Shown: positions 19,638 through 49,772 of the stretch, in pieces | Layout of the letters: the number at the start of each line of letters is the position of its first letter | Position numbering within the stretch: the first letter of the stretch is position 1 | Assembly: GCA_039811685.1 (NCBI GenBank) | Contig: JBDHZC010000005.1 | Location: 32,001 to 96,000 of the forward strand | Reading direction: 5' to 3' | Length of the DNA stretch: 64,000 nt | Origin: Armatimonadota bacterium | GTDB lineage: Bacteria; Armatimonadota; UBA5829; DSUL01 | The notes under the pieces: model-generated | Database searches by the model: none | What the model saw: only the letters and a program-made list of their open reading frames with translations | What the model was told of the DNA's origin: nothing | Translations under genes and position numbers: made by a program

Positions 19638-20089
19638 GTGCTGTTCCTGAGACAAATTGGGGGGCCGGACAACTTCAAAGGTTAGCTGCGGTCGCAACTG
19701 GTCTTCACGAAGATGCCCGCACACACTTGCGTGATGTTCTTACACGAACGCCTGTCGTTATTCCTCCGCGGTGCTTCGATATTCGTCTGCGAGGTATTCA
19801 GACTAGGTCGAACTCAACTGCCTATGGGCCTCCTGGAGGTTGAAGGTCGGCTGCAAAATGTTCAAATTGTCGAGTGATTTTCAATTTCGACCTTTTCCTC
19901 TTGGAGCGAAGCGGCATTTGCAGGCCGGCAGATTAGACTAAATAGACGAAGCGTTCGGTTGAGCCAGCTACCTTCATCCACCGCGCCCGGGCCACCGTTT
20001 TTTGACCTGATGGGTGAGTTTGCCTTACAATAGCCGCCGGAAATGGGTGGAGCTGAAGTTAACGGGCTCCCTGGAGGCGATATCTGAGT

Positions 20090-24308: not shown

Positions 24309-25421
24309 TCAGCGGCGGGCTGCGGATCTGGCGGATGTCTGCGCACGCGTGGCGACGCGGGCCAGACGCCAGACGCACATCTCCAGGTCGGCGAAGGGCT
24401 CTCCCACCGAAGGCGCGCGCCCTTTCAGCGCCAGGTCTGTTTGTGCCAGAAGATCAAAAACCTCTCCCACTGCCTTCAGGTCAAAGCGCTCCGCCTGCGC
24501 CCGGTATTTCCCCATTAGAAAGGGCGTGCGCTTGATGGAATCCAGCAGATTGGGAGACGATGGCAGGAGATCGGCGCAGCCGGAGGGCAGTGCGGAAACG
24601 TCCCGAAACGCGAATCCTTTGTCCCGCAGCACTCTGGCCTGCCACAGCAGCCGGAAGTGCCTCGCCAGGACCGCCAGTGTTCTGTGCGCGGTTGCGCGCT
24701 CATCGTCACCCGCCGCGAACATGTCGCGCAGCATATCCCCTGCAACCCGCGCTCGCCCGTCGCAAACCGCATCAATCATCGCGAAGATTCGGTCCTCGTG
24801 CGGAGGCGGAATCAGCGCTTCAACGTCTTTGGCGCTCACGGTAGTTTTTGGATAGGCGTGGCTGGCGAGCTTGTGCAGTTCGTTGGCAAGCTGCCAGAAG
24901 TTCGGACCCAGACGCCGGATAAGCTCCTGAGCCGCAGCCGGCTCGATCTTGACACCTTGCCGGGTAGCCTCCTGCGCAAGAAACGCGCGGGCGTCCTCGG
25001 GCTTTGCCTGCGCGCACGTGACGACAGCGCCACCGGCCTTCTCCACCGCCTTCAACAGCGCGAGCATGTCTTTGCCGGTGTCCACACACGATTCCAGCAC
25101 AAGGCACCCGCGTGGAGCGGGTAGCGTGACGAACTGAGCGAGCTGCTGGATCTCGCTCGCCGGAGCGTTCTGTAGGTTGCGAACAAGGACCACCCGCCGA
25201 CCCGAAGCCAGAGGGATTGTCTGCCAGGCGGCCAGAGCCTGCGCTGCTTTCAAAGACTCACCTTCCAGCGCGTCTGTGTCAAACTCGGCGAACGACGGCT
25301 CCAGAAAGCGTTTGGAAATCAGCGCCAGCGCCTGTTTGCGCGCCATGTCCTCCGGTCCTACGACAGCGAAGACAGCGGTATCTGGAACCTGCTTTTGCAG
25401 AGCGGCGGGAGTTATTTTCAC
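24309..25421 (-). CDS. holA: DNA polymerase III delta subunit
   Basis: TIPLASGRRVVLV, ELHKL, IFAMIDA, DLALKG; convergent with rpsT (conserved synteny). Confidence 0.88.
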   Translation of the reverse strand: MKITPAALQKQVPDTAVFAVVGPEDMARKQALALISKRFLEPSFAEFDTDALEGESLKAAQALAAWQTIPLASGRRVVLVRNLQNAPASEIQQLAQFVTLPAPRGCLVLESCVDTGKDMLALLKAVEKAGGAVVTCAQAKPEDARAFLAQEATRQGVKIEPAAAQELIRRLGPNFWQLANELHKLASHAYPKTTVSAKDVEALIPPPHEDRIFAMIDAVCDGRARVAGDMLRDMFAAGDDERATAHRTLAVLARHFRLLWQARVLRDKGFAFRDVSALPSGCADLLPSSPNLLDSIKRTPFLMGKYRAQAERFDLKAVGEVFDLLAQTDLALKGRAPSVGEPFADLEMCVWRLARVATRAQTSARSAARR

Positions 25422-35633: not shown

Positions 35634-38054
35634 TCAGGAAGCTTTTGGCCGGAATCTCGCCTGCGGCGCTCGCGGCTCGTTGTCCGCCAGTCCGCTCGGG
35701 CGATCCACCCTCGTGGAGGTCTGGGTGTGATCCGGGCGTGAAGGCCGCGACGGCCTGTCCGGCTTGTGTCCCCGGTCGCTGCGCTCCCGGCCGCCTCTGT
35801 CGCCCCGCTCGCGGTCATTGCCGCGGTGATCTTCACCACGTCCGCCACTGCGCCCACCGCGTCCACCGCGGTCGCCGCCCCGGTCACGTCCACCTCTGTC
35901 TCCCCGGTCGCCGCGCTCCTCGCGTCTGTCAGAGGGAGGCGCTGCGTTCGGGTTAATAACCAGAGGCTCAGCCAGGCCTTCGGCAATCAGGCTCCGGCGC
36001 TCCAGATTGATGCGCCCCATATCGTCAATCTCAGCGATGCGCACCATCACCTCGTCCCCGACATTGAGAGCGTCTTCCGTGCGTCCGATGCGGTGATCGG
36101 ACATCTCCTGAATCCGAAGCAGACCGTCCTTACCGCCAGCCAGTTCGATGAAAGCGCCGAAGTTTGTCGTGCGTACGACTGTTCCGGTGAAGGTTTCCCC
36201 GACGGAAAGCTCCCGCGTCATATCTTCGACAATCTTCGCGGCCCGTTCGCCTCCTGCGGCGTCCGTGGAGGTGATAAACACCCGCCCGTCCTGCTCGATA
36301 GCCAGTTTCGCGCCCGTGTCCGCCTCTATCTTCTTGATATTGCGTCCTCCCGGGCCGATGACCTCGCCAATCTTCTCAGGATTGATCTGCACTACCAGGG
36401 CGCGCGGGGCATACTGGCTCATCTCTTCGCGCGGTGCAGGCAAGGCGCTCTGAATCGAATCCAGCACAGTCTGGCGCGCCGTGTCGGCCTTCTGGATGGT
36501 CTCGGCGACCTGCTGCATGCTCAGCCCGCGAATCTTGGTATCGAGCTGAATGGCGGTCACGCCGTCGCGAGTCCCGGCTACCTTGAAGTCCATATCGCCG
36601 GAGAAGTCTTCCATCCCCTGAATGTCCGTGAGAATCTTATACCGGTCCCCATCCGTCATCAGGCCCATGGCGATTCCGCCGACCGGTTTCTTGATGGGTA
36701 CGCCGGCGTCCATAAGCGCCAGCGTGGAGGCGCACGTGCTGGCCATAGAGGTGGAGCCATTGGACTCCAGCACCTCGCTTGTCAGCAGAATGCTGTAAGG
36801 AAAAGTCTCCTCATCCGGGATCATCGGGCGCAGAGCCTTCTCCGCCAGCGCGCCGTGGCCGATCTCGCGGCGGCCGGGTCCGCGCATTGGACGCACCTCT
36901 CCCACGGAGTAGGGCGGGAAGTTGTAGTAGTGCATGTAGCGCTTGGTTGTGTCCTCTTCGATGCCGTCCACGATCTGTGCGTCATCTACCGAGCCAAGCA
37001 CCAGCGCTGTCAACACCTGCGTCTGTCCGCGCGTGAACAGGCCTGATCCGTGCACTCTGGGCAACAGACCGACTTCGGAACTCAGTGCGCGGATAGTGTC
37101 CGCGTCTCTTCCATCCGGACGCTTGTTTTCGTCCAGAATCAGACGGCGCACTTCCTTCTTGATAACTTTGTCCGCTGCCGCGCCGACATCCGCCGATCGC
37201 TCCGGATAGGCGTCCGCCAGCCGTTCAACTATGCTCTTCTTCAGATCATCCAGCGCGCTTTCACGCGCCGCCTTATCCGGATCTACCAGCGCGCTCGAAA
37301 TCTCGCTGAGAAAGTCCTTCTTGATGCGATCCATAATCTCAGGATCCGGCAGTGAGAGAATTGGCTCCGCCTTGGCGACGCCAAGCTTCCTGGCCAGCTC
37401 ATCCTGAGCGTCGCACAGCATGATAATGTTGTCGTGCGCAAGCTGAATCGCTGCCACCACGTCTTCGTTGGACGCCTCCGAAGCCTCAGCCTCCAGCATG
37501 TTGACAGTATCACGCGTGCCGGCGGCGATGATCTCCATGTCCGCCTGGGTCATCTCTTCAAAGCTCGGATTGACGATGAGCTCTCCGTCCTTGCGGATCA
37601 CGCGCACGCAGGCGACTGGGCCATCAAAGGGAATGTCCGAGACCGCCAGCGCAAAGGCCGCCGCGTTCACAGCCAGCACGTCCGGCGCTGTACTCAGGTC
37701 AACCGACAGCGGCATAGCCACGACCTGCACGTCGTTGCGCATACCGTCCGGAAACAGCGGGCGCAGCGGGCGGTCAATCAGCCTTGAAGTGAGAATCGCC
37801 TTTTCCGACGGCCGGCCGCCTCTTTTGACAAATCCGCCAGGAATCTTACCAACAGCGTACTTGCGCTCTTCGTAATCGCAAGTGAGGGGGAAGAAGTCCA
37901 TGCCCTCCCGGGCTTGTCTGGACATGGTGGCTGTGGCGAGAATAACCGTGTCGCCACAGTAGAGGAGGACAGAGCCGTTCGCCTGTTTGGCAACGCGCCC
38001 TGCCTCGATCCGGAGCTGCTTGCCTCCCAGCTCCAGAGAAACAGTATTATCCAT
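35634..38054 (-). CDS. pnp: Polyribonucleotide nucleotidyltransferase
   Basis: DFFPLT.DYEER, SRLIDRPLRPLF, RREIGHGALAE, SNGSTSMAS, GDMDFKVAGT, KH and S1 domains. Confidence 0.97.
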   Translation of the reverse strand: MDNTVSLELGGKQLRIEAGRVAKQANGSVLLYCGDTVILATATMSRQAREGMDFFPLTCDYEERKYAVGKIPGGFVKRGGRPSEKAILTSRLIDRPLRPLFPDGMRNDVQVVAMPLSVDLSTAPDVLAVNAAAFALAVSDIPFDGPVACVRVIRKDGELIVNPSFEEMTQADMEIIAAGTRDTVNMLEAEASEASNEDVVAAIQLAHDNIIMLCDAQDELARKLGVAKAEPILSLPDPEIMDRIKKDFLSEISSALVDPDKAARESALDDLKKSIVERLADAYPERSADVGAAADKVIKKEVRRLILDENKRPDGRDADTIRALSSEVGLLPRVHGSGLFTRGQTQVLTALVLGSVDDAQIVDGIEEDTTKRYMHYYNFPPYSVGEVRPMRGPGRREIGHGALAEKALRPMIPDEETFPYSILLTSEVLESNGSTSMASTCASTLALMDAGVPIKKPVGGIAMGLMTDGDRYKILTDIQGMEDFSGDMDFKVAGTRDGVTAIQLDTKIRGLSMQQVAETIQKADTARQTVLDSIQSALPAPREEMSQYAPRALVVQINPEKIGEVIGPGGRNIKKIEADTGAKLAIEQDGRVFITSTDAAGGERAAKIVEDMTRELSVGETFTGTVVRTTNFGAFIELAGGKDGLLRIQEMSDHRIGRTEDALNVGDEVMVRIAEIDDMGRINLERRSLIAEGLAEPLVINPNAAPPSDRREERGDRGDRGGRDRGGDRGGRGGRSGGRGEDHRGNDRERGDRGGRERSDRGHKPDRPSRPSRPDHTQTSTRVDRPSGLADNEPRAPQARFRPKAS

Positions 38055-38071: not shown

Positions 38072-38341
38072 CTATCTGCGCAGGCCGAGTTTGCTGATGA
38101 GGGAACGGTAACGCTCAATATCTTTCTTGCTGAGGTAATTAAGCAAGCGGCGGCGTTTTCCGACCATCATCAACAGGCCTCTGCGGGAGTGGTGATCCTT
38201 CTTGTGCCCCTTGAGGTGCTCTGTAAGCTCGGAAATGCGGGCTGAGAGCAGGGCAACCTGAACTTCAGGCGAGCCTGTGTCAGCCTCGTGGGTCTTGTGC
38301 TCGCCGATAATCTCTGCTTTTCGCTCTTGCAAAAGCGACAT
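38072..38341 (-). CDS. rpsO: 30S ribosomal protein S15
   Basis: [29 protein letters not shown]; rpsO-pnp operon. Confidence 0.97.
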
Positions 38342-38768
38342 GTATCGCCTGTTCCTCCTGCGCAAAGTCTGAGGACTGCGCATAACAACGCCGGTCCGCA
38401 GACCGGCTCTTTCAATAATCTCCACGTATGTGAGTCGGCAACAGTTTACCATTCCACTAAACCACTGTCAACGCGCACGCCCGCATGTTGCTGTGCAGTG
38501 CGACTGCATCCCTGACACGTAGCGATCCTGTCCGCCTGTTCGTCCTGCAGAAGTGTAACTCTCCCGGCTTTCGCAGTCTGAGTTGACACGGGCACGCATC
38601 AGGCGTAGTCTTGCAGTTACTGTTCGTCCGGGAGGAAAGCTGTCCTGCTGGTGAGCCGAGTCTTGCGGGCGCGGAGTTTTGCCAGTTCTCCTTCGCCTGC
38701 AGATGCCCAAAGGAGGGCCCGCAGACATGAAACTATCAGCCTGTCCCATGAGGCGGGGGAAGTCCTCG

Positions 38769-39674
38769 ATGAAAAAACACTTAGTCACGCTTATGTTGGC
38801 TATGGCCCTTGCCGTTTCCTTCGCAGGCGCTGCGCCTGTGTTCGCGGCAGATAAGACCGTTGAGACTACGTCTAGCCCAGCGCCGGACGCCCTTGAGCTG
38901 CGAACGGCGTCGGACGCGGACGTGGTGACGATGCTCTCGGATGAACGCGCGATGTACCGCGCCTTTTTTGCGACGGAAGCCGGCGGTCGCGGCTTGACCG
39001 CGGCAAAGCCCCGGTTGAAGCATCTACTCTCAGACCCGGACGAGTTGGTCCGGGTGGAGGCTGCGGGAGCTCTGCTGCGGCTTACTGAGCGCTCCGGTGT
39101 CCCCGTGCTCCGGGCGGCCCTGTCCAACGAGGCGAGCAGGAGCAGACTGACTGCGGCCCGGTACCTGTCTCTAGTCGCAGACAAGCAGGCCGTGGCTGTT
39201 CTGCAGAACTATCTCACGAGCAAGTTATCTTTTGAGCGAGACACCGCCGTGCACGCCCTTGCAGCTCTGAAGGATGACTCGATCGCCTATGCCGCGCTGG
39301 TGGCCGGGTTGCAGGATGAAAACGATCTGGTACGCCAATCGGCCATTTATCTGCTGGGTGGACGCACGGGCGAACGCTCCACCCGGATGCTGCGTGAGAT
39401 CCTCCAAACAAGTCAGGTCCAGATGGAAAGAGGGATGGCAATCTCGTCGTTGGAGCGGCTCGGCACTCCTGCCGTGGTACTATCCATCATAGACGCTCTG
39501 GCGGACGAAAGTCCGGTCGTTAGTGTGGCAGCGCGAAGAGCTCTGCTGAAGCTGACAAGGCGTATCGGTGCGCCGGAGGGGGTCGGGCTGGCGCAGGCCG
39601 AGGATTGGCGCGCCTGGTGGGCGCAACACAGGCAGGAGTATAAGGAACACGGCCTGCCAGGGGCGGGAGGCTGA
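38769..39674 (+). CDS. Secreted HEAT-repeat protein (array gene 1)
   Basis: Signal peptide MKKHLVTLMLAMALA..; repeated L.D....VR..A..AL; W.AWW tail. Confidence 0.8.
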   Translation: MKKHLVTLMLAMALAVSFAGAAPVFAADKTVETTSSPAPDALELRTASDADVVTMLSDERAMYRAFFATEAGGRGLTAAKPRLKHLLSDPDELVRVEAAGALLRLTERSGVPVLRAALSNEASRSRLTAARYLSLVADKQAVAVLQNYLTSKLSFERDTAVHALAALKDDSIAYAALVAGLQDENDLVRQSAIYLLGGRTGERSTRMLREILQTSQVQMERGMAISSLERLGTPAVVLSIIDALADESPVVSVAARRALLKLTRRIGAPEGVGLAQAEDWRAWWAQHRQEYKEHGLPGAGG

Positions 39675-39819
39675 AGAACCCCCAGCGTCCGGCGGAATGA
39701 CCATTTCATGAACAGCGCAGGCTACCATAGCAGCTTCTAGTTCGCGGCGTCACGTGGAGATGAAGGAATCTACGGCCCGGCGGGTCTATTCAGTTGGGCA
39801 GCGAACGGAAGTTGCCTGT

Positions 39820-39946
39820 GCCGGAAGCTTTCAGGGCCGATTGGGAGCAGTGGTGGGCCGAGAACCAGAGCCAGTTCCCGCCTGGCGCCAAGATCAAAGC
39901 TAAAGCTGCGGCCTTCGAACCAGCCGAACCCGCAACGGAGTGGTAG
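39820..39946 (+). pseudogene. Remnant of HEAT-gene 3' end (copy of 47070..47221 tail)
   Basis: DWEQWWAENQSQFPPGAKIKA...* nearly identical to the end of 46301..47221. Confidence 0.8.
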
Positions 39947-40046
39947 CGGTGGAACAGCGCTTCATCCGCGCAGAGGAGCGCATCTGCGCATGGACTTGGC
40001 GAATCTTTCACCCACTGGCTCCAGGTGGGGATACCTGGAGAGATGT
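39943..40046 (+). repeat. 104-bp array element A, copy 1
   Basis: GTAGCGGTGGAACAGCGCTTCATCCGCGCAG...CTCCAGGTGGGGATACCTGGAGAGATGT. Confidence 0.95.
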
Positions 40047-40047
40047 G

Positions 40048-40167
40048 ATGCAAGACGATGCCTTGAGTGGGTTCTTTACGCCGACGGGTCAGTCCGGCTA
40101 CTACCTCTACAAGAAGCAGTCGCCCAGCGACGTGCGGCTGGAAGGAAGAGAAGTTCCGTACCCGTAG
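40048..40167 (+). other. Short ORF / gene 3' tip (MQDDALSGFF...GREVPYP*)
   Basis: Frame preserved with synonymous changes in the copy at 44876..44995. Confidence 0.55.
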
Positions 40168-40191
40168 CGCCTATCGGCGAAAGAGGATGAA

Positions 40192-41184
40192 ATGTTTCGA
40201 CAGTTGATCTGGTTTGTCACAGCAGCGCTCCCTTTGCTCGCACTTGTGCTCGCCGCGGCCGCGTGCGGTGCAAGCGATATTCCGGTCGCTGTGCCCGCCC
40301 CCGGAGAGCCGCCTGTTCTGTTCGCTGCCGAGTCAGCAGGTGTGCTCTACACGGCAACTCTGGAGGCGGACAAGCGCGTTGCGGTCATCGCCGCCCTGCC
40401 GCTTGATCGAGTTGCGGAAAAACGGACTTACACAGTGCCGGTACCCGCTCTCGAATACGAAAGTTTCCAGCGGCTCCGCTGGAGACTGGGCAGCGGATAC
40501 GCGTGGCTGCTGCCAACGGTGCTGACGAATGGTGGCTTACGCCGCTACCCGATGTATCGCATTCCGCGCAGCGAACTCGACAAACTCCTCCACGGCAGTA
40601 ACGAAGCCAGCGGAAGCGGCTTGAAAGACATGTGGTTTCCGCCGGGCTTTGCGCCACTCACACGCGCGGACGATGAATCCGGGGTGAAAGGGCAGCCGAT
40701 CTACGGAGACTTCTACCCTATCTCTACATCAGCTATCCGGCAGTTCATTTTGCAGGGCAGCGTACTGAGCGTCTGGGACTACATCGGAAACCCAGACGCC
40801 AAGCGGCCTGGGGGAAGTGACAGAGACCTCACTCCCGTGGCTGACCGAGAGCGGTACTTCAACTGGGTCCGCGTGGTGAAGCTGAAGGCGCCTTTTACGG
40901 AGTCCTTCCACGCGTTTCCTCAGAAGGGCGGGTTCCTGCTGGTTACGGACTCCGGCGCGCTCTACTCCATCACGGGCATCAGCACCGGTACTCCAGCGAT
41001 ACGCAGGGTGGATCTGGGCGACGAGCAGATCAGGGTTATCGTGCAGACGGAGGGTGGATCGGCCATTGCGGCGACGCAGACGAAGCGCCTCGATCTGTCC
41101 TCGGCGCCGAAGCTGTCGCCGCTTTCGCATCCGCACAGCTCACCGACGGCTGCGGCCCTTGAGCTGGCCAAAGCGCTGAAGTAG
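40192..41184 (+). CDS. Secreted hypothetical protein, array family X (copy a)
   Basis: SD GAGGA, signal/lipoprotein-like N-terminus (LAAAAC), near-identical copy at 45020. Confidence 0.8.
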   Translation: MFRQLIWFVTAALPLLALVLAAAACGASDIPVAVPAPGEPPVLFAAESAGVLYTATLEADKRVAVIAALPLDRVAEKRTYTVPVPALEYESFQRLRWRLGSGYAWLLPTVLTNGGLRRYPMYRIPRSELDKLLHGSNEASGSGLKDMWFPPGFAPLTRADDESGVKGQPIYGDFYPISTSAIRQFILQGSVLSVWDYIGNPDAKRPGGSDRDLTPVADRERYFNWVRVVKLKAPFTESFHAFPQKGGFLLVTDSGALYSITGISTGTPAIRRVDLGDEQIRVIVQTEGGSAIAATQTKRLDLSSAPKLSPLSHPHSSPTAAALELAKALK

Positions 41185-41265
41185 TAGCGGGGTCGGCCGC
41201 GCTCAGTGAAGGAAGTCAGCCATCGCGGAGTCAAAGAATGGAGAAACAAGTAGCTCAGGCGCAGC
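41184..41265 (+). repeat. About 82-bp array element B, copy 1
   Basis: GTAGCGGGGTCGGCCGCGCTCAGTGAAGGAAG.CAGCCATCGCGGAGTCAAAG...CTCAGGCGCAG; recurs at 44536 and 48381. Confidence 0.9.
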
Positions 41266-41414
41266 AAACCGTTCTGACTCTTGAAGCTGCGACAGCTACC
41301 TGCGCCGATTGGAAGCAGTGGTGGGCCGAGAACCAGAGCCAGTTTCAGTCCGGCACCAGGAGCAAAGCTGAAGCTGCGGCCTTCGAACCAGCCGAACCCG
41401 CAACGGAGCAGTAG
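41266..41414 (+). pseudogene. Remnant of HEAT-gene 3' end
   Basis: Starts AAACCGTTCTGACTCTT, as at 47070. Confidence 0.8.
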
Positions 41415-41514
41415 CGGAGGAACAGCGCTTCATCCGCGCAGGTGTCCTCACCTGCGCATAGAATTGGCGAATCTTTCACCCACTGGCTCCAGGTGGGGAC
41501 ATCTGGAGAGATGT
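41411..41514 (+). repeat. 104-bp array element A, copy 2
   Basis: Same boundaries and length as copy 1. Confidence 0.95.
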
Positions 41515-41516
41515 AA

Positions 41517-41609
41517 ATGGGGGCCCTTCTGCCAGACTGGGACGATGATGATCCCAATCTGAACGGGGCGGAGAACGAGGACCTGGACCAGGTGACACGC
41601 GTCGAATGA
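41517..41609 (+). other. Short ORF / gene 3' tip (MGALLPDWDDDDPNLNGAENEDLDQVTRVE*)
   Basis: Open acidic frame whose stop overlaps the SD of the next gene. Confidence 0.45.
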
Positions 41610-41617
41610 GGAGACCA

Positions 41618-43090
41618 ATGGTTTACAATGGAGTTATGGTCGTCGCCCGGCAGAAAGGCCCTGCCGGCCACTATGCAGCTGTCCTCGCGATAGCCGCATT
41701 CGTGTCCGCAGTGTGTGCTGCACAAGCGGCGTGCGAACTGCCAACTCACGGTTGGGAGTTCACAGTCGCAGCGGAGCACACGCCGGCTGTAGCGATCAGT
41801 AGAGACGGCTCGCGCATCGCCGTTTCCGACTGGGCGGCCATCTATCTACTTGACCGGCAGGGCAAGGTGCTGTGGACCGCGAAGGCGCCACCGAAGAGTG
41901 GCTTCGGAGTGACCGCCATCTCTGACACCGGCCATCGTGTGCTGTGCTGGAAGATTCGGCGCCTCCCAAGTGTGGACAACGAGGATATCGACTACAACGC
42001 GGTGCTCTTCAACGGCGCCAACGGGCAGGTGCTGACCGAGATCGAGCTGGACGGGGGCCGAGTGCCGACGGCGCTGTCTGGCGATGGACGGTATATTCTG
42101 GCGGGCTATCCGCCGGACGGCCTGGGCCTGGAAATGGCAGCACAGCCTGATCCCGCCAACTACCTCATGCTCTTAGATGACACCGGCAAGACCGTCTGGC
42201 GCTCAGACAAGCTTGCCCAAAAGCCCGTTGTCGGAGCGGCTTACGGCTTTTTATCCCACACCGGTTCCTATGCGCTGCTCGGCGCAAAAGACCGCCTGAA
42301 CCTTGTGACCATCGGCGGCTATCACCTTTTCGACATTGCACTGACGTCAGACCCTGCCGTTTCCGCCGACGCTGACTTGATCATGATGGGCGCCACACCC
42401 GTGTTGTCCACAGACGTTCAGAAGTATGAGACCGCATGGCCTGTTGTCGCGCCACAGGGTGAGCAAGAGCCGCAGACATGGGGCCATGAGTCCTTTGGCT
42501 TCAAGACGTACACTGCAGCCGCGGCGCTCGCCTTGGTCCGCGTCGGGGATGTGGCCGAGGAGTCGCCTCCCCCGAACCGGCGGCATCCCTTTGCGGAGCT
42601 GGTGTGGGCGCATGGCGAGATCTGGGCGGGAAACCGGGAACGAGTGCTGGATGCGCCGAAGCTTCCGCCCATTCCCGCCGGTAATCCTGGACGGCGCGGG
42701 GTTGCCTACGGATCGGCTGGGCTGCTGGCAATTGTCGACCACACGCTGTTGGCGGCAGAGCTTGGGCAGGAGCACGCGGTGAAGTTGCTACGCCTGCCAG
42801 GGCTGGGGATTGTGAAAAGGGTCGGCGTGTCCAGCAACGCTTCCCGCGCCTACACTCTCGTCGCCGTCCCCGCTGGGTCCGATCTAGTGGGACGCGGCCC
42901 CAGCACGGGTTCGGCGGCTTCCGCTCTTGTCTGCACCGTCTGGGACAGGTCTGCCAAACCTGTTGCAACAATGCCTCTTTCAGAGCAGGAGAGGCCCTTC
43001 GCGATAGCCTTCTCCCACGCAGGCGATCTCCTGATCCTAGCGTGGAAGGGTAAGGTGCAGGCGTTCGAGATCGGAGGCGTCGCCAGGTAA
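41618..43090 (+). CDS. Secreted beta-rich (propeller-like) hypothetical protein
   Basis: SD GAGGAG; hydrophobic N-terminus; repeats such as AISRDGSRIAV, ALSGDGRYILAG, LLD..G..VW. Confidence 0.75.
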   Translation: MVYNGVMVVARQKGPAGHYAAVLAIAAFVSAVCAAQAACELPTHGWEFTVAAEHTPAVAISRDGSRIAVSDWAAIYLLDRQGKVLWTAKAPPKSGFGVTAISDTGHRVLCWKIRRLPSVDNEDIDYNAVLFNGANGQVLTEIELDGGRVPTALSGDGRYILAGYPPDGLGLEMAAQPDPANYLMLLDDTGKTVWRSDKLAQKPVVGAAYGFLSHTGSYALLGAKDRLNLVTIGGYHLFDIALTSDPAVSADADLIMMGATPVLSTDVQKYETAWPVVAPQGEQEPQTWGHESFGFKTYTAAAALALVRVGDVAEESPPPNRRHPFAELVWAHGEIWAGNRERVLDAPKLPPIPAGNPGRRGVAYGSAGLLAIVDHTLLAAELGQEHAVKLLRLPGLGIVKRVGVSSNASRAYTLVAVPAGSDLVGRGPSTGSAASALVCTVWDRSAKPVATMPLSEQERPFAIAFSHAGDLLILAWKGKVQAFEIGGVAR

Positions 43091-43255
43091 CCCGGGTCGA
43101 GAACCCAATGCAGTTGACTTACTACGCCGACTGGAACTCAGAGACCGTAGCGATGGCCGGACTGCTTGCCGGAGGGGACGGCCAGTGCGGCTCCGCCTCA
43201 GGCGCAGCACGACGGCCTGGAGGGCCCGGCCTAGCAGCAGATGGTCGCCTGTCTC

Positions 43256-43381
43256 ACGGATATGAAGACCGCGCTGGGGTGTCCCCAGGCTATGCTTCAT
43301 CCGCGCAGGTGTCCTCACCTGCGCATAGAATTGGCGAGTCCTTCGCCCACTGGCTCCAGATGGGGACACCTGGAGAGATGT
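43256..43381 (+). repeat. Array element A, copy 3 (variant 5' end)
   Basis: Matches the consensus from GCTTCATCC (43294) to GAGAGATGT (43381); different 5' arm. Confidence 0.9.
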
Positions 43382-43455
43382 AAAGCTCGACCTGATATCG
43401 AGTGACGTAGCCGGCAGGGAAGCCTCGTATCCATAGCGTTAGAAGGAGTCACTAG

Positions 43456-44538
43456 ATGAAGATCACCGCTGTTGCCAAAGCTCTTCTTGTCTGTTGGTTG
43501 GCGGTCGACGCCGTCAGCCCTGCCGTCGCCGAGAGCTATCTATTCAGTGAAGAGACGAAGCACCCCCTGATCGTCCAGCGCCCGCTGACAGGCATACTGG
43601 TTGATGAGACTATGTACACTCTCTCGATCGCGCCAGAGTCGGGCTATGCGCCTGTACTGACGGAGACGCCGATGACCGCGCTTGCCGCGCCTGTCAGCTA
43701 CGCTCTCACCGCAGTAGCCGACGCCAGACGCCCGGCCTTTCCTGTTCACTGGTCGCTGCGTGGAGGTTTTGTTTGGACGTTGACTGAGTCCGATACGCCG
43801 CTGAGTGGCATAGTGCCGTTTTACTTCAGTCTTCAGCGGACTGCGCTGACTGGCCTGGAGCCGTGTGCCGCAGCCACCACGCATGTGGTCAAGCCCGGTA
43901 CTGTTGCCGATGTGTGGCACGCTCATCTGGCTAAGTGGGAGCGTGTCGCTTTCACTGAGCCCGAGACGCTGAACGACGCGACGCGGGCCGCCCGGCCTCC
44001 CGAGGTACCCTATCCTCTTGCCGCTATCGTGGTGACGGGACCGGTGACCGTCCAGCTTTTCCAGTTGACCGCCCCACATATGATGGGATGGGAGTACCGT
44101 GGGCCGGAGAAGCCTCGGCGGTGGAAAGCCGCGTTTGGGCCGGGGATGGCGCCGATCTCTCCCGAGAGTCAGCGGGGCGTGCCTCTCAAGGAGCGTACTC
44201 ACTCCGGCGACTGGTGGCGCATAGGGATGTTCGACGTTCCCTTCAGCGAGGCCTAGGAAGTGGCCAAGGTCGAAGGTACCTACTACGCCGTGACACAGAG
44301 CGGAGAGGTTTTCTCTCTGGGCGACCTTACCGGGAAAGTAAAGAAGATCGACATAGGAGGCAGACGTGTGACGGCGATTCTGACGCTGGAGGAGAGCGGA
44401 AAGGTGTATCTTTGTTCGCATGAGGACTACGCGCCGCTGTCGGATTCGCCTGGATTCAAATCCATTCCTGGAGGACACCCAGACGTCACCAGATCGGCAA
44501 CGCAGTGCCTGCTGGACCTGGCGAAGGCGTTGAACTAG
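43456..44538 (+). pseudogene. Array family X protein interrupted by in-frame TAG at 44254..44256
   Basis: ORFs 43456..44256 and 44260..44538 are in frame; together they align with 47380..48381 and 40192..41184. Confidence 0.8.
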
Positions 44539-44774
44539 CGCAGGGACTGCCATCCGCACGCAGTGAAGGAAGGCAGCCATCGCGGAGTCAAAGAATCGAG
44601 AAATGAGCGGCTCAGGCGCAGTAAAGCGATCTGAATCTGAAGGCCGCGGAAGCTGCCAGGTCCGATTGGGAGCAGTGGCGGGCAGAGGACCAGAGCCAGT
44701 TTCAGTCCGGCACCAAGATCAAAGCTGAGGCTGGCGCACCCTCGATGTCGCCCGGCCCCGCGGCTCAGCCGTAG
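44536..44774 (+). repeat. Element B copy 2 (diverged) plus HEAT 3' remnant
   Basis: CAGTGAAGGAAGGCAGCCATCGCGGAGTCAAAG...CTCAGGCGCAG then ...GATTGGGAGCAGTGG...GCTCAGCCGTAG. Confidence 0.85.
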
Positions 44775-44874
44775 CGGAGGAACAGCGCTTCATCCGTGCA
44801 GATGAGCGCATCTGCGCATAGAATTGGCGAATCTTTCACCCACTGGCTCCAGGTGGGGACACTTGGAGAGATGT
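44771..44874 (+). repeat. 104-bp array element A, copy 4
   Basis: Same boundaries and length. Confidence 0.95.
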
Positions 44875-45019
44875 GATGCAAGACGATGCGTTGAGCGGGT
44901 TCTTTAGGCCGGCGGGTCAGTCCGGCTACTACCTCTACAAGAAGCAGTCGCCCAGCGATGTGCGGCTGCAAGATACTGAAGTTCCGTACCCGTAGCGCCT
45001 ATCGGCGAAAGAGGATGAA

Positions 45020-46012
45020 ATGTTTCGACAGTTGATCTGGTTTGTCACAGCAGCGCTCCCTTTGCTCGCACTTGTGCTCGCCGCGGCCGCGTGCGGTGCA
45101 AGCGATATTCCGGTCGCTGTGCCCGCCCCCGGAGAGCCGCCTGTTCTGTTCGCTGCCGAGTCAGCAGGTGTGCTCTACACGGCAACTCTGGAGGCGGACA
45201 AGCGCGTTGCGGTCATCGCCGCCCTGCCGCTTGATCGAGTTGCGGAAAAACGGACTTACACAGTGCCGGTACCCGCTCTCGAATACGAAAGTTTCCAGCG
45301 GCTCCGCTGGAGACTGGGCAGCGGATACGCGTGGCTGCTGCCAACGGTGCTGACGAATGGTGGCTTACGCCGCTACCCGATGTATCGCATTCCGCGCAGC
45401 GAACTCGACAAACTCCTCCACGGCAGTAACGAAGCCAGCGGAAGCGGCTTGAAAGACATGTGGTTTCCGCCGGGCTTTGCGCCACTCACACGCGCGGACG
45501 ATGAATCCGGGGTGAAAGGGCAGCCGATCTACGGAGACTTCTACCCTATCTCTACATCAGCTATCCGGCAGTTCATTTTGCAGGGCAGCGTACTGAGCGT
45601 CTGGGACTACCGCGGAAACCCAGACGCCAAGCGGCCTGCGGAAAGTGACAGAGACCTCACTCCCGTGGCTGACCGAGAGCATTACTTCGACTGGGTCCGC
45701 GTGGTGAAGCTGGAGGCGCCTTTCACGGAGTCCTTCCACGCGTTTCCTCAGAAGGGCGGGTTCCTGCTGGTTACGGACTCCGGCGCGCTCTACTCCGTCG
45801 CGGGCATCAGCACCGGCACTCCAGCGATACGCAGGGTGGATCTGGGCGACGAGCAGATCAGAGTTATCGTGCAGACGGAGGGTGGATCGGCCATTGCGGC
45901 GACGCAGACGAAGCGCCTCGAGCTGTCCTCGGCGCCGAAGCTGTCGCCGCTTTCGCATCCGCACAGCTCACCGACGGCTGCGGCCCTCGATCTGGCCAAA
46001 GCGCTGAAGTAG
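45020..46012 (+). CDS. Secreted hypothetical protein, array family X (copy b, near-identical to 40192..41184)
   Basis: Same 330-aa length; N-terminal ~195 aa identical. Confidence 0.8.
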   Translation: MFRQLIWFVTAALPLLALVLAAAACGASDIPVAVPAPGEPPVLFAAESAGVLYTATLEADKRVAVIAALPLDRVAEKRTYTVPVPALEYESFQRLRWRLGSGYAWLLPTVLTNGGLRRYPMYRIPRSELDKLLHGSNEASGSGLKDMWFPPGFAPLTRADDESGVKGQPIYGDFYPISTSAIRQFILQGSVLSVWDYRGNPDAKRPAESDRDLTPVADREHYFDWVRVVKLEAPFTESFHAFPQKGGFLLVTDSGALYSVAGISTGTPAIRRVDLGDEQIRVIVQTEGGSAIAATQTKRLELSSAPKLSPLSHPHSSPTAAALDLAKALK

Positions 46013-46115
46013 TAGCGGGGGAACAGCGCTTCATCCGCGCAGATGAGCTCATCTGCGCAAAGCATTGGCGAGTCCTTCACCCACTGGCTCCAGGTGGGGA
46101 CACCTGGAGAGATGT
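46012..46115 (+). repeat. 104-bp array element A, copy 5
   Basis: Same boundaries and length; directly abuts the gene stop. Confidence 0.95.
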
Positions 46116-46268
46116 AAAGCGACGTTCGTGGCGGCAATCAACCAGGAGAGGATCGCGGGTGATAAGGATTACGAGGAGCAGGCCTACGGCGCGGAGGCCG
46201 TGTGCGAAATGGACCTGCTGGAGGAGACGTGCGCGTACGTCACGCCGCCATGTGAGGCGTGTCCATGA
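46116..46268 (+). other. Gene 3' tip, Cys-rich (..EEQAYGAEAVCEMDLLEETCAYVTPPCEACP*)
   Basis: Motif shared with 48712..48838. Confidence 0.55.
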
Positions 46269-46300
46269 CCATGGTATGCAGTCCTAGAACGGAGGTCGTT

Positions 46301-47221
46301 TTGAAACTCTTTATTGTGCTACTGCTTGCTGCTGCTCTTTGTGTTACGGCAATATCCGAGGGTGCGTCGGCCGAGCGCACGTGTGCCGCCACCAGGTATT
46401 ACCGCTCCACGGTTTCTGAGTTGGTCGGGCTGCTTTCGAGTGGGCTGTCTATCGACCGGTTCGACGCGGCTCTCGAACTCGGGCGGCGAGGCGATGTGTC
46501 AGTGATCCCTGCAATGAAGGCTGCGCTTGGCGATCCGGAGCGTTTCGTGCGGATGCGGATAGCTGCTGCGCTGCTGGATCTCGGCGATCGAAGCGGCGTG
46601 GAGGTACTTCACGAAGTTGTTACGTCGGGTGAGCCCTACTGGAGTCTGGCAGCGGCGGAGGTGCTTGCCCATCACGGTGACACCTTTGGCCGTGATCTCA
46701 TCAGGAAGGCTCACTCTTCGAGCAGTTGGGTCGCTCGCTCCTCAGCCTTAAGGGCCTCGGCCGACCTTCCGGAGGGGCCGCCCTACGACGCCGTGGCTGC
46801 CGGACTGGAGGACTCGCAGCAGATTGTCCGCTTGACCGCCCTGAGGGCTGCTCAAATGTGCCATGACCCCCGGGTGAAGGATCTGGTCCGCAAGGCGTTG
46901 TCTTCTTCCGATACGCTTCTGAGGGCGCGCGCGGCCATCATAATTGCGGAGGAGGGGCAGCCCGCAGACATTCCGGCTCTGATAGCGCTGTTGACAGCTC
47001 CGGATGGGGTTACCCGTTCTGCCGTTCTCAGAGCACTGCAGTCGCTGACGGGGCGTGCTTCTCCGTCGAAAACCGTTCTGACTCTTAAGGCTGCGACAGC
47101 TATCCGCGCTGAGTGGGAGCAGTGGTGGGCCGAGAACCAGAGCCAGTTCCCGCCTGGTACCAAGATCAAAGCTGAGGCTGGCGCACCCTCGGTGTCGCCC
47201 GGACCCGCGGCTCAGCCGTAG
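46301..47221 (+). CDS. Secreted HEAT-repeat protein
   Basis: SD GGAGG, TTG start, signal peptide, HEAT repeats, WEQWW tail. Confidence 0.82.
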   Translation: MKLFIVLLLAAALCVTAISEGASAERTCAATRYYRSTVSELVGLLSSGLSIDRFDAALELGRRGDVSVIPAMKAALGDPERFVRMRIAAALLDLGDRSGVEVLHEVVTSGEPYWSLAAAEVLAHHGDTFGRDLIRKAHSSSSWVARSSALRASADLPEGPPYDAVAAGLEDSQQIVRLTALRAAQMCHDPRVKDLVRKALSSSDTLLRARAAIIIAEEGQPADIPALIALLTAPDGVTRSAVLRALQSLTGRASPSKTVLTLKAATAIRAEWEQWWAENQSQFPPGTKIKAEAGAPSVSPGPAAQP

Positions 47222-47321
47222 CGGAGGAACAGCGCTTCATCCGTGCAGAGGAGCGCATCTGCGCATGGACTTGGCGAATCTTTCGCCCACTGGCTCCAGA
47301 TGGGGACACCTGGAGAGATGT
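47218..47321 (+). repeat. 104-bp array element A, copy 6
   Basis: Same boundaries and length; GTAG overlaps the HEAT stop. Confidence 0.95.
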
Positions 47322-47379
47322 AAGTCGCGAATACTGAGCGCAACTGAGATGCACAATGAGAAGCAAAGGACACAGTAAA

Positions 47380-48381
47380 ATGAGGGTACGGAAACGGCCT
47401 CTTCTTCTTCTCTTCGGAGTCCTACTTGTCACCACTCCACCAGCTGTCGGGCAGCCGTCTCCTGGTGTTCGCCTACGTCCTGGTCAAAGCCAACTGGTGC
47501 AGACTCCGCTGACGGCCTCTTCACGTGCGGGCGTTCTTTACACAGTGATCATTGACAAAGGGCGTGCCTTGCTGCGGCAGACGCCTCTTGATACTTCATC
47601 GCCCGTTCGCTTCGCAAGTCTGGAGTCCTCCAGCCGTTTGACCGGTATCGGCCCGATGTTTCCAGCGCATTGGGGACTTGCAGACGGCTTCCTTTGGTCG
47701 CTGGTTCTTGAAGAAGGAGACGCATACTGGGCCAGCCCACATCTAAGCCGCTTCGCGCTGGAGGACATGCGTCTCGTGGACCCGGACAACGCCCTTCCGC
47801 CTCGAGGCGCGCACCGCACAAGGCGCACAGAAGTCCCCCCGTATCCTCTCCTGGATGCCATCGCGGAAGGGTCAAACCGTGACTTACTGGTCTTCCCCGC
47901 GCTTCAGCCCCTGTCGCGCAAATCCGTCCGCCTGTTCGTGCTGCAGCCGCCCGTGCTGACGGTATGGGTGAACGAAGACCCCGCGCTTTTCGCACCACGA
48001 ACGTCCGGACGCAGCGTCGAAGGACGCGTGAAGGAAAAGGGCAGGATTGAGAACTGGTTGAAGGTTGCGTCTATCAGTGTTCCTTTCGCCGAGCCTTTCG
48101 AAGTTGTTGGGTGCGGTTCCGTCTGCTACTTCATCACAGGAAGCGGGGACCTCTATGCAGATAAAGATCTGAAGGCAAGTCCGCAGAAGATCGACACAGG
48201 AGGCAGGCGCGTGACGGCGATTCTGACGCTGGAGGAGAGCGGAAAGGTGTATCTTTGTTCGCACGAGGACTACGCGCCGCTGTCGGATTCGCCTGGATTC
48301 AAATCCATTCCTGGAGGTCACCCAGGCGTCACCAGGTCGGCAACGCAGTGCCTGCTGGACCTGGCCAAAGCGCTGAAGTAG
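47380..48381 (+). CDS. Secreted hypothetical protein, array family X
   Basis: Signal peptide; GVLYT, HWGL..GFLW, PFAEPF, TGSG.LY, LDLAKALK shared with paralogs. Confidence 0.78.
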   Translation: MRVRKRPLLLLFGVLLVTTPPAVGQPSPGVRLRPGQSQLVQTPLTASSRAGVLYTVIIDKGRALLRQTPLDTSSPVRFASLESSSRLTGIGPMFPAHWGLADGFLWSLVLEEGDAYWASPHLSRFALEDMRLVDPDNALPPRGAHRTRRTEVPPYPLLDAIAEGSNRDLLVFPALQPLSRKSVRLFVLQPPVLTVWVNEDPALFAPRTSGRSVEGRVKEKGRIENWLKVASISVPFAEPFEVVGCGSVCYFITGSGDLYADKDLKASPQKIDTGGRRVTAILTLEESGKVYLCSHEDYAPLSDSPGFKSIPGGHPGVTRSATQCLLDLAKALK

Positions 48382-48611
48382 TAGCGGGGTCGGCCGCGCT
48401 CAGTGAAGGAAGTCAGCCATCGCGGAGTCAAAGCATGGAGAAACGAGCGGCTCAGGCGCAGCAAACCGTTCTGACTCTTAAAGCTGCGACAGCTATCCGC
48501 TCCGATTGGGAGCAGTGGTGGGCCGAGAACCAGAGCCAGTTCCCGCCTGGCGCCAAGATCAAAGCTGAGGCCGCACCCCCGGCGTCGCCCGGACCCGCGG
48601 CTCAGCCGTAG
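48381..48611 (+). repeat. Element B copy 3 plus HEAT 3' remnant
   Basis: B 48381..48462, remnant 48463..48611. Confidence 0.88.
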
Positions 48612-48711
48612 CGGTGGAACAGCGCTTCACCCGTGCAGAGGAGCGCATCTGCGCATTGAATTGGCGCATCTTTCGCCCACTGGCTCCAGGTGGGGACATC
48701 TGGAGAGATGT
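48608..48711 (+). repeat. 104-bp array element A, copy 7
   Basis: Same boundaries and length. Confidence 0.95.
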
Positions 48712-48838
48712 AAACAAACAACGTGATGAAGAAGAAGCGTACTCCGAACAGGAGATGTGCGAGAGGCTTACGTTGGACGACTGGTGTACATTTGGTATCC
48801 ACGGGCCCTGCACGGCGTGCGATGATCTCAATGACTAG
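48712..48838 (+). other. Gene 3' tip, Cys-rich (..EEEAYSEQEMCERLTLDDWCTFGIHGPCTACDDLND*)
   Basis: Motif shared with 46116..46268. Confidence 0.55.
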
Positions 48839-48857
48839 CAAGATGATGGAGGAAAGA

Positions 48858-49772
48858 ATGACGAAGATGGTAGCGCTGGTTCTAATCTGCGGGTGGTTCG
48901 GCTGGGGTGGTGTCTGTGCTGCGGGGCCGGCTACCCCTGTCACCGCCACAAATGGCTCAGCGACTCGTTCACCGGATTGTGACGAGGCGAGTGTCCCTGA
49001 ATTGATTGCCATCCTTCGTGAGCGTGGAACCTTTGCTGTCCGTGCAGCACAGCTCCTTGCGGATCGCCACGCGACGTCTGCAATTCCGGATCTCGCGCTG
49101 TTGTTGACGGATCCGAAAATCTCTCTGCGGATAAATGCGGCGCGTGCAATGGCGCTCCTGGGAGACCGGAGCGGGTTACCAGTGCTGCGGGCGGCGCTGA
49201 CAGAGGGTGACGATTTCCACGCCTCTATCGCGGCCGCTTTTCTGGCGCAGCTTGGCGACGACAGTGGGCGCGCGGTTTTGGAGAGGGAACTCAGTAGTCA
49301 AAACTGGATCGACCGGAGGCAGGCCCTGTACGCATTGGCGCTTCTTCCGGATGGTCTGTCTGATGTGGCTGTTGCAGCGGCTCTAGAGGACGAAAGGCCG
49401 GAGGTACAAAGAAGCGCGTTTCGTGTGGCCTGGAAAAATGCGTCTGATAGGGTGCGGGAGGTGTTGATTAAAAAGACACAGTCCCCGGATCCGCTTACCC
49501 GCTGGCGGGCGACTGAGGCCCTGTTTATGAGTAACCCGCACCGAAACGCAGAGATTGCTATTGGCATGATTACGGATCCGGACCGCCTCGTACAGGGACA
49601 AACATCCATGATGCTGGCGCATTTCTCCCGTGTGGCTGTGCCTCGGGTGAGCGGGTGGATGAGGAGTGCCGAGCGGGCAAGAGATCTCAAGCAGGCGTAT
49701 CTGGAGTGGCTGGCGGTTAACAGGGACGTGGCGTTCCCGCCAACCGAGCCGGCGCCGCCTGCACCGCAATAG
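48858..49772 (+). CDS. Secreted HEAT-repeat protein
   Basis: SD GGAGG, signal peptide, L.DP...R..AA.A...LGDRSG shared with the other two HEAT genes. Confidence 0.8.
   Translation: MTKMVALVLICGWFGWGGVCAAGPATPVTATNGSATRSPDCDEASVPELIAILRERGTFAVRAAQLLADRHATSAIPDLALLLTDPKISLRINAARAMALLGDRSGLPVLRAALTEGDDFHASIAAAFLAQLGDDSGRAVLERELSSQNWIDRRQALYALALLPDGLSDVAVAAALEDERPEVQRSAFRVAWKNASDRVREVLIKKTQSPDPLTRWRATEALFMSNPHRNAEIAIGMITDPDRLVQGQTSMMLAHFSRVAVPRVSGWMRSAERARDLKQAYLEWLAVNRDVAFPPTEPAPPAPQ

Follow-up and report, generated by a model that had tools for sequence, protein, structure and literature searches.

REP-type doublets in a tandem array of secreted-protein paralogs beside rpsO-pnp in an Armatimonadota genome

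In its published definition a REPIN consists of two inverted repetitive extragenic palindromic (REP) sequences with a spacer and is linked to REP-associated tyrosine transposases (RAYTs). REPINs and their RAYT transposases are described in Pseudomonas fluorescens SBW25 (PMC3116915; PMC3337134), and tandem REPIN clusters that include flanking sequence are also reported (PMC3116915). Most REPs, according to PMC3733652, are found downstream of open reading frames (ORFs) where the neighbouring genes run in one direction, and they plausibly function as RNA. Here we describe element A, a repeat of about 104 bp that occurs seven times in a gene array of an Armatimonadota bacterium (assembly GCA_039811685.1, contig 5, JBDHZC010000005.1). 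The stretch analysed, referred to as the window, comprises 64,000 nucleotides (nt), positions 32,001 to 96,000 of that contig, and coordinates of the array are those of the window. An original prediction from the sequence took the array for a gene-capture or shuffling system built on an undescribed recombination site. We consider it likely that A is instead a doublet of the REPIN or BIME (bacterial interspersed mosaic element) type within an array of secreted paralogs that was duplicated and converted in place, without gene capture. The assignment to this type follows from the published definition, since A consists of two inverted REPs and a spacer and its family is tied to RAYT-like genes.

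Element A and its REP family

A repeat search of the window identified a direct-repeat family of seven members between 39.9 and 48.7 kb, spaced 1206-1867 nt apart (starts at 39939, 41407, 43274, 44767, 46008, 47214 and 48604). When one copy was compared by BLAST with the whole assembly, a metagenome-assembled genome from sludge-type samples (3.42 Mb, 15 contigs, 97% complete), all seven matches fell inside the array and on the + strand. Six are full length (104 nt) and 92-100% identical to that copy; the third, A3, matched only over positions 17-104, at 88% identity, and its true start is 43294. Both searches thus bear out the predicted set of seven co-oriented copies, and the architecture of one element per gap also stands. 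The copies are as follows.

A1: 39943..40046, + strand; REPIN-like doublet of left unit, spacer and right unit
A2: 41411..41514, + strand; REPIN-like doublet whose left hairpin shares its central 16 nt with the REP upstream of the contig-3 RAYT-like gene
A3: 43294..43381, + strand; covers no more than the doublet core (positions 17-104); left flank unique
A4: 44771..44874, + strand; REPIN-like doublet, within a recent 1.37-kb duplication
A5: 46012..46115, + strand; REPIN-like doublet
A6: 47218..47321, + strand; REPIN-like doublet
A7: 48608..48711, + strand; REPIN-like doublet, last copy

A3 marks the left edge of the element proper, and the right end, ...GGAGAGATGT(A/G)A, is constant in all seven copies. 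Compared pairwise, the copies differ at 6-15% of positions, and their flanks are unique. The array spans about 11 kb. An ORF scan of the window confirmed its predicted place beside rpsO (38072-38452, - strand) and pnp (35634-38054, - strand), from which it diverges; at its far end it precedes a convergent PEP-CTERM gene. The main downstream ORF follows A after a gap of about 17-151 nt, so that the predicted order of element, short spacer and gene holds but the predicted spacer of about 60-190 bp does not. The first gene, H1, has no A upstream of it, and the last, H3, has no A after it.

Each A is made up of two hairpin units, one inverted relative to the other, with a spacer of about 29 nt between them. 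The left unit is the head TTCATCC followed by a hairpin with a 9-bp stem, which reads GCGCAGGTGAGGACACCTGCGC-GGATGAAG on the - strand, and the right unit is the hairpin CTCCAGGTG-GGGA-CACCTGGAG followed by the head AGATGT. The core of the REP family of this genome is the hairpin CTCCAGGT-(T/G)GGGA(A/C)-ACCTGGAG followed by GGATGA; 5' of the stem stands either TTCAATGC or TTTCATCC, 3' of it either GGATGA or GCATTGAA, and neither a GTAG nor a CGTC tag was found beside the stems. Both units of A are diverged members of this family. Alignments group the left unit with REPs upstream of RAYT-like genes and the right unit with REPs downstream of them, and in the left unit the outer stem has passed from CTCC/GGAG to GCGC/GCGC by compensating changes. 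Across 35 aligned matches, the hairpins pair in 94.7% of cells, compared with 34.7-48.4% when the partner is slid, in an alignment that was fitted to a covariance model and so favours structure. Changes on both sides occur in 17 of 22 hairpin pairs, and the closing pair varies among A-U (20), G-C (9) and U-A (4).

Beyond the 14 units of the array, five contigs carry the hairpin with its head at a further 18 sites, and 16 of these 18 lie outside any ORF of at least 150 amino acids (aa). The 9-kb array therefore holds 14 of the 32 REP units of the genome (44%), as a subfamily found nowhere else. A covariance model built from the seven copies has weaker full-length matches elsewhere in the genome, the best of them at contig 10:3377-3493 (35.9 bits), which is the one full doublet found outside the array. 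Among relatives of the same class, this model matches 14 sites in genome G043 (best 38 bits) and 11 in genome G008. The exact palindrome CTCCAGGT-N4-7-ACCTGGAG is present in 9 of 53 class genomes, at 86, 76, 61, 23, 16, 15 (this genome), 10, 3 and 1 sites; a control with the reversed pattern gave no site in any of the 53, and the five other genomes of the family lack the exact palindrome. Such a patchy, high-copy distribution is what a REP family shows.

At least six doublets on five contigs of G043 have the architecture of A, reading TCATCC-hairpin, about 26-29 nt, hairpin-GGATGA, and that genome holds 82 oriented sites over more than 40 contigs. Its best-scoring site lies 38 nt past the stop of one gene, ahead of the next co-oriented gene. 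Three co-oriented REP units, 598 and 303 nt apart, form the only small cluster seen there (contig 1:212485-213411). The original prediction was to be refuted if A were scattered across the genome like an ordinary MITE or REP. This applies to the family, given the 18 other units and the dispersed doublets of the relative, but not to the 104-bp subfamily, which is private to the locus.

BLAST with the 104-bp element gave no credible match in 60 relatives, a lone 24-nt match in a coding region of G003 being judged due to chance, and the core pattern of A had no match in two public collections, one of genome contigs and one of metagenome contigs, from which near-identical records may be missing. 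In a synteny comparison of the other genomes of the family from which G003 was left out, the remaining four of the five share no neighbouring gene beyond rpsO and have no array there. Rfam has no family for A; its only matches in the array are sub-threshold ones to naRNA4 in X1 and X2 (27.2 bits against 59.5). Two further readings of the repeat were dropped. A sigma-54-like reading of TTGGCG-N-TTC(A/G)C, made by eye in a genome that has rpoN, lacks the -12 GC in four of the seven copies. One frame is open from TAG to TAA or TGA in six of the seven copies; coding by A, or read-through of the TAG into A, was rejected on the mostly non-synonymous substitutions (by eye), the lack of a suppressor tRNA and the common use of TAG as a stop.

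Two RAYT-like genes are present in the genome, at contig 3:184560-185276 and contig 5:24073-24606, the latter located outside the window, some 47 kb upstream of A1. They were found by tblastn (E 6e-22 and 2e-17) with the single Y1 protein of G043, which has 202 aa, scores 100.3 bits against the NCBIfam model NF047646 (REP-associated tyrosine transposase; cut-off 80) and is encoded between hairpins whose heads face outward on both flanks. The two proteins of this genome match the whole NF047646 model with 76.5 and 75.8 bits (E about 1e-21). They carry the HUH (HIH, HVH) and YxHxNPV motifs and are 28% identical to each other. Pfam PF01797 (Y1_Tnp) reported no Y1 transposase in this genome at E <= 0.001, and because tblastn and NF047646 recovered two RAYT-like genes that it missed, absence calls with that model are unreliable in this class. 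REP units flank both genes, at 184463 and 185751 on contig 3 (75 and 474 nt away) and at 23561 and 24751 on contig 5 (490 and 144 nt away); by our own arithmetic, about 0.02 units would be expected that near by chance, against the four observed. A search for an HUH transposase that co-occurs with A, which the original prediction had suggested, was thus productive, and the recombination site it had called undescribed proves to be a doublet of a RAYT-associated REP family. REP heads in the array point inward, to the genes, and those flanking the RAYT-like genes point outward.

Across the class, Pfam Y1_Tnp matches occur in all eight other motif-bearing genomes versus 23 of 44 motif-free ones, in a comparison of kin that are not independent and with a model that misses members. 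Among 13 Y1 loci examined in five genomes, three have a hairpin within about 450 nt and ten have none. We found 499 RAYT relatives in public genome contigs; a loosely similar palindrome occurs at only one of the 80 loci kept, and the REP sequence is therefore lineage-specific.

At contig 10:2775-2858 and contig 11:875-952, fragments of a RAYT-like N-terminus (VKWKSIDTGAGCY...) pass directly into a REP hairpin and resemble RAYT units with an internal deletion, which would make them candidate REPIN precursors. Near the RAYT-like genes, the REP hairpins occur together with a second short repeat family, TTTCGGGATTTCCAGGTTGGAGCC and its complement (contig 5:23589-23626 and 24608-24645, and also contig 10).

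Array genes, relics and mosaic blocks

Sequence comparison indicates that the array genes are paralogs: three encode HEAT-repeat proteins (H1-H3), four encode beta-propeller-like X proteins and one a further propeller-like protein (Y). Signal peptides of the array proteins were judged by eye. The genes and relics are as follows.

H1: 38769..39674, + strand; secreted HEAT-repeat protein, first gene (Pfam HEAT_2, 3.3e-31; ATG at 38769 chosen by eye)
W1: 39794..39946, + strand; relic of a HEAT-gene C-terminus with the WEQWWAENQSQF tail, its TAG stop within the first bases of A1
X1: 40192..41184, + strand; lipoprotein-like secreted protein with a putative beta-propeller-like fold, 97% identical to X2, from whose model the fold is taken
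W2: 41238..41414, + strand; free-standing relic of a HEAT-gene C-terminus, 58 codons
Y: 41606..43090, + strand; secreted protein of 494 aa, probably a beta-propeller (PQQ_2/BamB-like; lead only)
X': 43456..44538, + strand; X paralog broken by an in-frame stop (TAG, 44254-44256); over its last ~200 nt it matches the end of X3 at 94% identity
W4: 44603..44770, + strand; HEAT-gene tail relic, decayed, with a broken frame
X2: 45020..46012, + strand; recent duplicate of X1, its stop abutting A5 with no W relic between
H2: 46259..47221, + strand; secreted HEAT-repeat protein that retains the whole W tail and whose stop falls inside A6 (Pfam HEAT_2, 2.1e-20)
X3: 47356..48381, + strand; X paralog, 30% identical to X2
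W7: 48435..48611, + strand; free-standing relic of a HEAT-gene C-terminus, 58 codons
H3: 48843..49772, + strand; secreted HEAT-repeat protein, last gene (Pfam HEAT_2, 2.3e-20; start chosen by eye, longest ORF from 48723)

Seven of the eight genes thus fall into two paralog families (H1-H3; X1, X2, X3 and X'), with H relics between them. The original prediction had one complete gene after each A, which is so for six copies; the seventh is followed by X', whose TAG splits the gene into ORFs of 266 and 92 codons. Since TAG is an ordinary stop in this genome, where it terminates 635 of 1758 long ORFs, and no suppressor tRNA was found in the genome, X' looks like a pseudogene. Its 3' part, with 94% DNA identity to the end of X3, suggests that it is still undergoing conversion.

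The X-family proteins are 97, 30, 27 and 33% identical to X2. No relative of X was found among 60 related genomes, and a word-indexed search returned X alone; a full profile search retrieved 71 distant relatives at E <= 0.001, and X was therefore rejected as a strict ORFan. No Pfam family was found in 16 of the 17 distant relatives scanned, and the nearest named relative comes from a metagenome-assembled Armatimonadota genome (lead only). A structure model of X2 based on 41 sequences reached a predicted local distance difference test (pLDDT) score of 85.7, and its leading fold matches are all beta-propellers, with modest template-modelling scores (TM-scores) of 0.3-0.44; an earlier attempt from 5 sequences (pLDDT 41) was unusable. 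Y has no Pfam or NCBIfam match, and its protein-atlas neighbours score 0.90-0.95, several of them carrying PQQ_2/WD40 (lead only). Searches of the array proteins in Pfam, NCBIfam and PADLOC gave HEAT-repeat-level matches and otherwise nothing. The array amounts to a tandem, lineage-specific gene family for secreted proteins of the repeat-scaffold type, both HEAT solenoids and beta-propeller-like proteins.

In four gaps, a HEAT C-terminus of 50-58 codons lies just before A, in three of them as an ORF and in one in decayed form. These W segments bear WEQWWAENQSQF, as does the C-terminus of H2. A metagenome search with the W tail gave five weak matches and no related array; in four of the five, all in unrelated contigs, the tail closes a whole HEAT-repeat protein. 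Because H2 and unrelated whole HEAT proteins end in this tail, the W blocks are relics of deleted H genes and not mobile modules. The tail of the unrelated HEAT-repeat proteins, on four metagenome contigs, reads (D/E)WEQWW(Q/N)E(H/N), probably a widespread C-terminal motif among HEAT proteins of this kind. Small acidic ORFs with four cysteines (C-x9-C-x7/8-C-x2-C) occupy the gaps between A5 and H2 (46128-46268) and between A7 and H3 (48713-48838) and share 39% identity over 31 aa. The one before H2 runs into the H2 start through ATGA, and the one before H3 has no canonical start codon between A7 and an internal ATG.

Self-comparison of the array revealed a recent 1.37-kb duplication, 39822-41192 and 44647-46020, with 95.3% identity, and further repeated blocks at 85-93% identity. 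The right ends of the blocks always lie 0-6 nt from the end of A, and their left ends vary widely, within W relics and the 3' ends of X genes. One such block joins 44342-44874 to 48185-48711 (X' versus X3-W7-A7) over 534 nt at 88% identity, the proteins X' and X3 being otherwise about 27-30% identical. Blocks cover 3' gene ends together with A, and gene bodies are about 30% identical. Every X gene ends in AAGTAGTAGCGGGG; X1 and X3 are then followed by a W block bounded by the 9-nt direct repeat GTAGCGGNG, and in X2 the extension of A comes directly after that end. Such a mosaic is what gene conversion and short-homology deletion among paralogs produce. Homologous recombination between repeats, one of the two routes that the original prediction had offered, finds support in these blocks of 85-95% nucleotide identity across 3' gene ends and A; gene capture does not, the genes being paralogs duplicated and decayed in place and not unrelated cassettes.

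Two independent sludge metagenome runs carry pieces of the array at >= 99% identity, and the collapsed X1/X2 pair has about double depth in them (21.4 against about 11-14). Because every repeat interrupts the contigs of these runs, they neither confirm nor contradict the gene order. Among contigs from RNA runs, one covers 41254-41428 (W2), one covers 47627-47897 (X3) and others cover H3. In two RNA runs of different studies, the contig over the H3 leader matches from exactly 48712, the first base past A7, and the 8-15 letters before this point are unlike A and absent from the genome; they may represent a strain variant at the A7 junction.

Elsewhere in the window, 14928-19724 (- strand) encodes a 1598-aa protein with DUF4011, AAA_11/AAA_12 helicase, MTES_1575 restriction-endonuclease-like and DUF3320 domains.

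Origin of the array and alternative readings

We hypothesize that in the ancestral state the doublet lay just past the conserved 3' tail of an ancestral gene, and that the block of tail and doublet spread by segmental duplications. Gene conversion would keep the blocks 85-94% alike; it would extend leftward into paralogous tails, producing the ragged left edge, and halt at the right end of the doublet, where homology stops, producing the sharp right edge. Deletions would have taken out most of several HEAT genes. At least one copy, A3, would have arisen by another route, through insertion or conversion of an older copy, because it has only the core next to an unrelated left flank. As RNA, the hairpins would be transcribed with the co-oriented genes and might act as intercistronic structures that affect stability or translation, as other REPs may; as DNA, they would supply homology that drives rearrangement of the array.

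Several observations weigh against this account. The 104-bp subfamily is private to the array and is not itself a dispersed population, and the AGATGT head and the GCGC left stem of A depart from the family consensus; RAYTs may have ceased to act on A, which could have been co-opted for a local role. The scores of both RAYT-like proteins stop just short of the NCBIfam cut-off and PF01797 missed both, and the family does not carry the GTAG/CGTC tags that PMC3733652 gives for most described REPs. Five independent right junctions share their end base, which site-specific events would also explain, and the unrelated left flank of A3 means that at least one copy came without the tail block. The RNA data that bear on the presumed transcription through A are low-depth contigs only, and gene order in other strains is unreadable where contigs break at A.

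A different reading, which we regard as improbable but still worth weighing, is that A serves mainly as a cis-regulatory leader shared by the downstream genes, REP-derived and now kept for regulation. Its right hairpin would pair a CCUCC-like segment with GGAG and end in a constant AUG-UAA/UGA start-stop, its left palindrome would serve as operator or as a further RNA hairpin, and all seven genes would be co-regulated. The position of A shortly upstream of each gene agrees with this, except that H1 has no A. The constant right end fits as well, with small ORFs that begin at or just past the stop in A1, A2 and A4, and the conservation of A is far above that of the genes. Stem substitutions are mostly G-U-compatible on the + (sense) strand, with seven one-side-changed cells against two A-C cells, and several of the hairpins elsewhere in the genome precede a co-oriented ORF by 2-190 nt. 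However, GGAG and ATG are only 2 nt apart, whereas the distance before real genes here is 5-8 nt (by eye). No copy of A contains a sigma-70-like promoter (2 sites in 12.5 kb against 2.3 expected, neither in A), and the best -10-like hexamer sits in the least conserved stretch of A. The absence of an Rfam match also argues against a leader, as do the same hairpins flanking transposase genes and lying scattered between unrelated genes in relatives.

Integron-like shuffling of cassettes by HUH chemistry, in which a trans-acting RAYT would cleave single-stranded DNA at REP heads and move units of gene plus doublet, is in our view quite unlikely. What speaks for it is the one co-oriented site per gene, the sharp right boundary identical at five independent junctions, an independent left junction in A3 that coincides exactly with the edge of the core, the RAYT-like genes, one of them on the contig of the array, the 44% of REP units concentrated in the array, and the non-matching letters that precede 48712 in RNA contigs from two studies. 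Yet the genes are paralogs and relics, not unrelated captured ORFs; the REP heads face into the genes, the reverse of the configuration at RAYT genes; no joints across A were seen in two DNA runs, although their contigs cannot bridge repeats; and the ragged left edges track paralogous homology, as in gene conversion. RAYTs are not known to mobilise cargo genes.

The locus also differs from tyrosine-recombinase systems that the original prediction had named for their one-site-per-gene architecture. It is not an integron cassette array. As predicted, none of the 50 window ORFs scanned encodes a recombinase or transposase and no copy of A (0 of 7) has an RYYYAAC/GTTRRRY pair on either strand; the same is true within 30 nt of the ends of A, and 38.4-50.0 kb holds no properly spaced attC core pair. 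The genome has no integron integrase: PF00589 gives two matches, both on contig 2, which are XerD (339.1 bits, cut-off 329.6) and a XerC-like protein, and TIGR02249 (integron integrase) scores 129 against a cut-off of 265. Arrays of recombinase-associated orphan immunity (rAID) genes begin with a tyrosine recombinase gene and encode homologs of immunity proteins; this window has no such recombinase among its scanned ORFs, and the array proteins match HEAT-repeat models or nothing.

Equally slight is the chance that the REP/RAYT system was recruited to serve as the scaffold for recombination in a diversifying array of secreted-protein genes, with a private REPIN subfamily at every gene boundary. 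The mechanism this calls for, a trans-acting RAYT working on single-stranded DNA, or RAYT nicks that start conversion, so that gene-sized modules are moved or converted, seems to us just as doubtful. We keep it in mind because of the shared right boundary, the left junction of A3, the local concentration of REP units and the unlike letters at A7; if true, such an array would be an HUH-based functional counterpart of the integron. That the repeats or their arrangement are an artefact of the metagenome-assembled genome is barely credible: the assembly comprises 15 contigs from sludge-type samples and short-read contigs of other runs break at every A, but the copies differ from one another at the level given above and have unique flanks, and two independent runs from different studies hold all unique segments at >= 99%, with depth doubled only over X1/X2.

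In the preferred reading, then, A is a known kind of element at an unusual local concentration, not a new recombination or gene-capture system. This removes a false lead, since the one-site-per-gene pattern stems from REP doublets inside a tandem paralog family. It also documents a REP/RAYT family from a class of sludge bacteria that has received little study; the GGATGA tag of this family is unusual, and its RAYTs can escape the Pfam Y1_Tnp model. The array provides a compact natural example of REP doublets and conserved gene tails as homology islands for duplication, conversion and deletion, and bears on the influence of REPINs over gene-family evolution.

Comparison with known systems

Like the REPINs of P. 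fluorescens SBW25, the units described here flank RAYT-like genes, and the family is extragenic, repeated and patchy among relatives; the tandem clusters described there likewise carry flanking sequence along (PMC3116915). Unlike in SBW25, only 32 units are present in this genome, 14 of them in one array, whose copies, changed in head and left stem, are a subfamily of their own, and the two RAYT-like genes share only 28% identity. The module is also gene-sized here, at 1.2-1.9 kb, whereas the clusters described in PMC3116915 reach about 700 bp in total.

As PMC3733652 describes for GTAG/CGTC REPs and BIME dimers, the units are palindromes of 20-40 nt with a conserved unpaired motif at one end, often in pairs of opposite orientation, mostly located past ORFs between unidirectional genes and plausibly transcribed. 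The tag differs, being GGATGA here (TCATCC on the other strand), next to the stem CTCCAGGT/ACCTGGAG with a GGGA-type loop.

Chromosomal integron arrays of the attC/VCR type, including attC clusters without an integrase, resemble this locus in having one conserved, structured, co-oriented repeat of about 100 nt per gene; in both, most genes are uncharacterised and of a secreted or ORFan-like type, and the genes are far less alike than the repeats. Integron arrays differ from this locus in that here the genome has no IntI, the repeat has no R''/R' cores and is a RAYT-associated REP, and the genes are paralogous.

A further parallel is offered by tandem families of surface-protein genes whose conserved upstream blocks recombination keeps alike, for instance the vsp/vlp loci of Mycoplasma. 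In those loci the blocks are promoters or 5' leaders and are sites of recombinase-driven inversion. Both there and here, conserved non-coding blocks stand beside divergent paralogs for secreted proteins and the genes are mosaic; in the present array, unlike in Mycoplasma, there is no local recombinase, the genes are co-oriented and the conserved block is a REP doublet.

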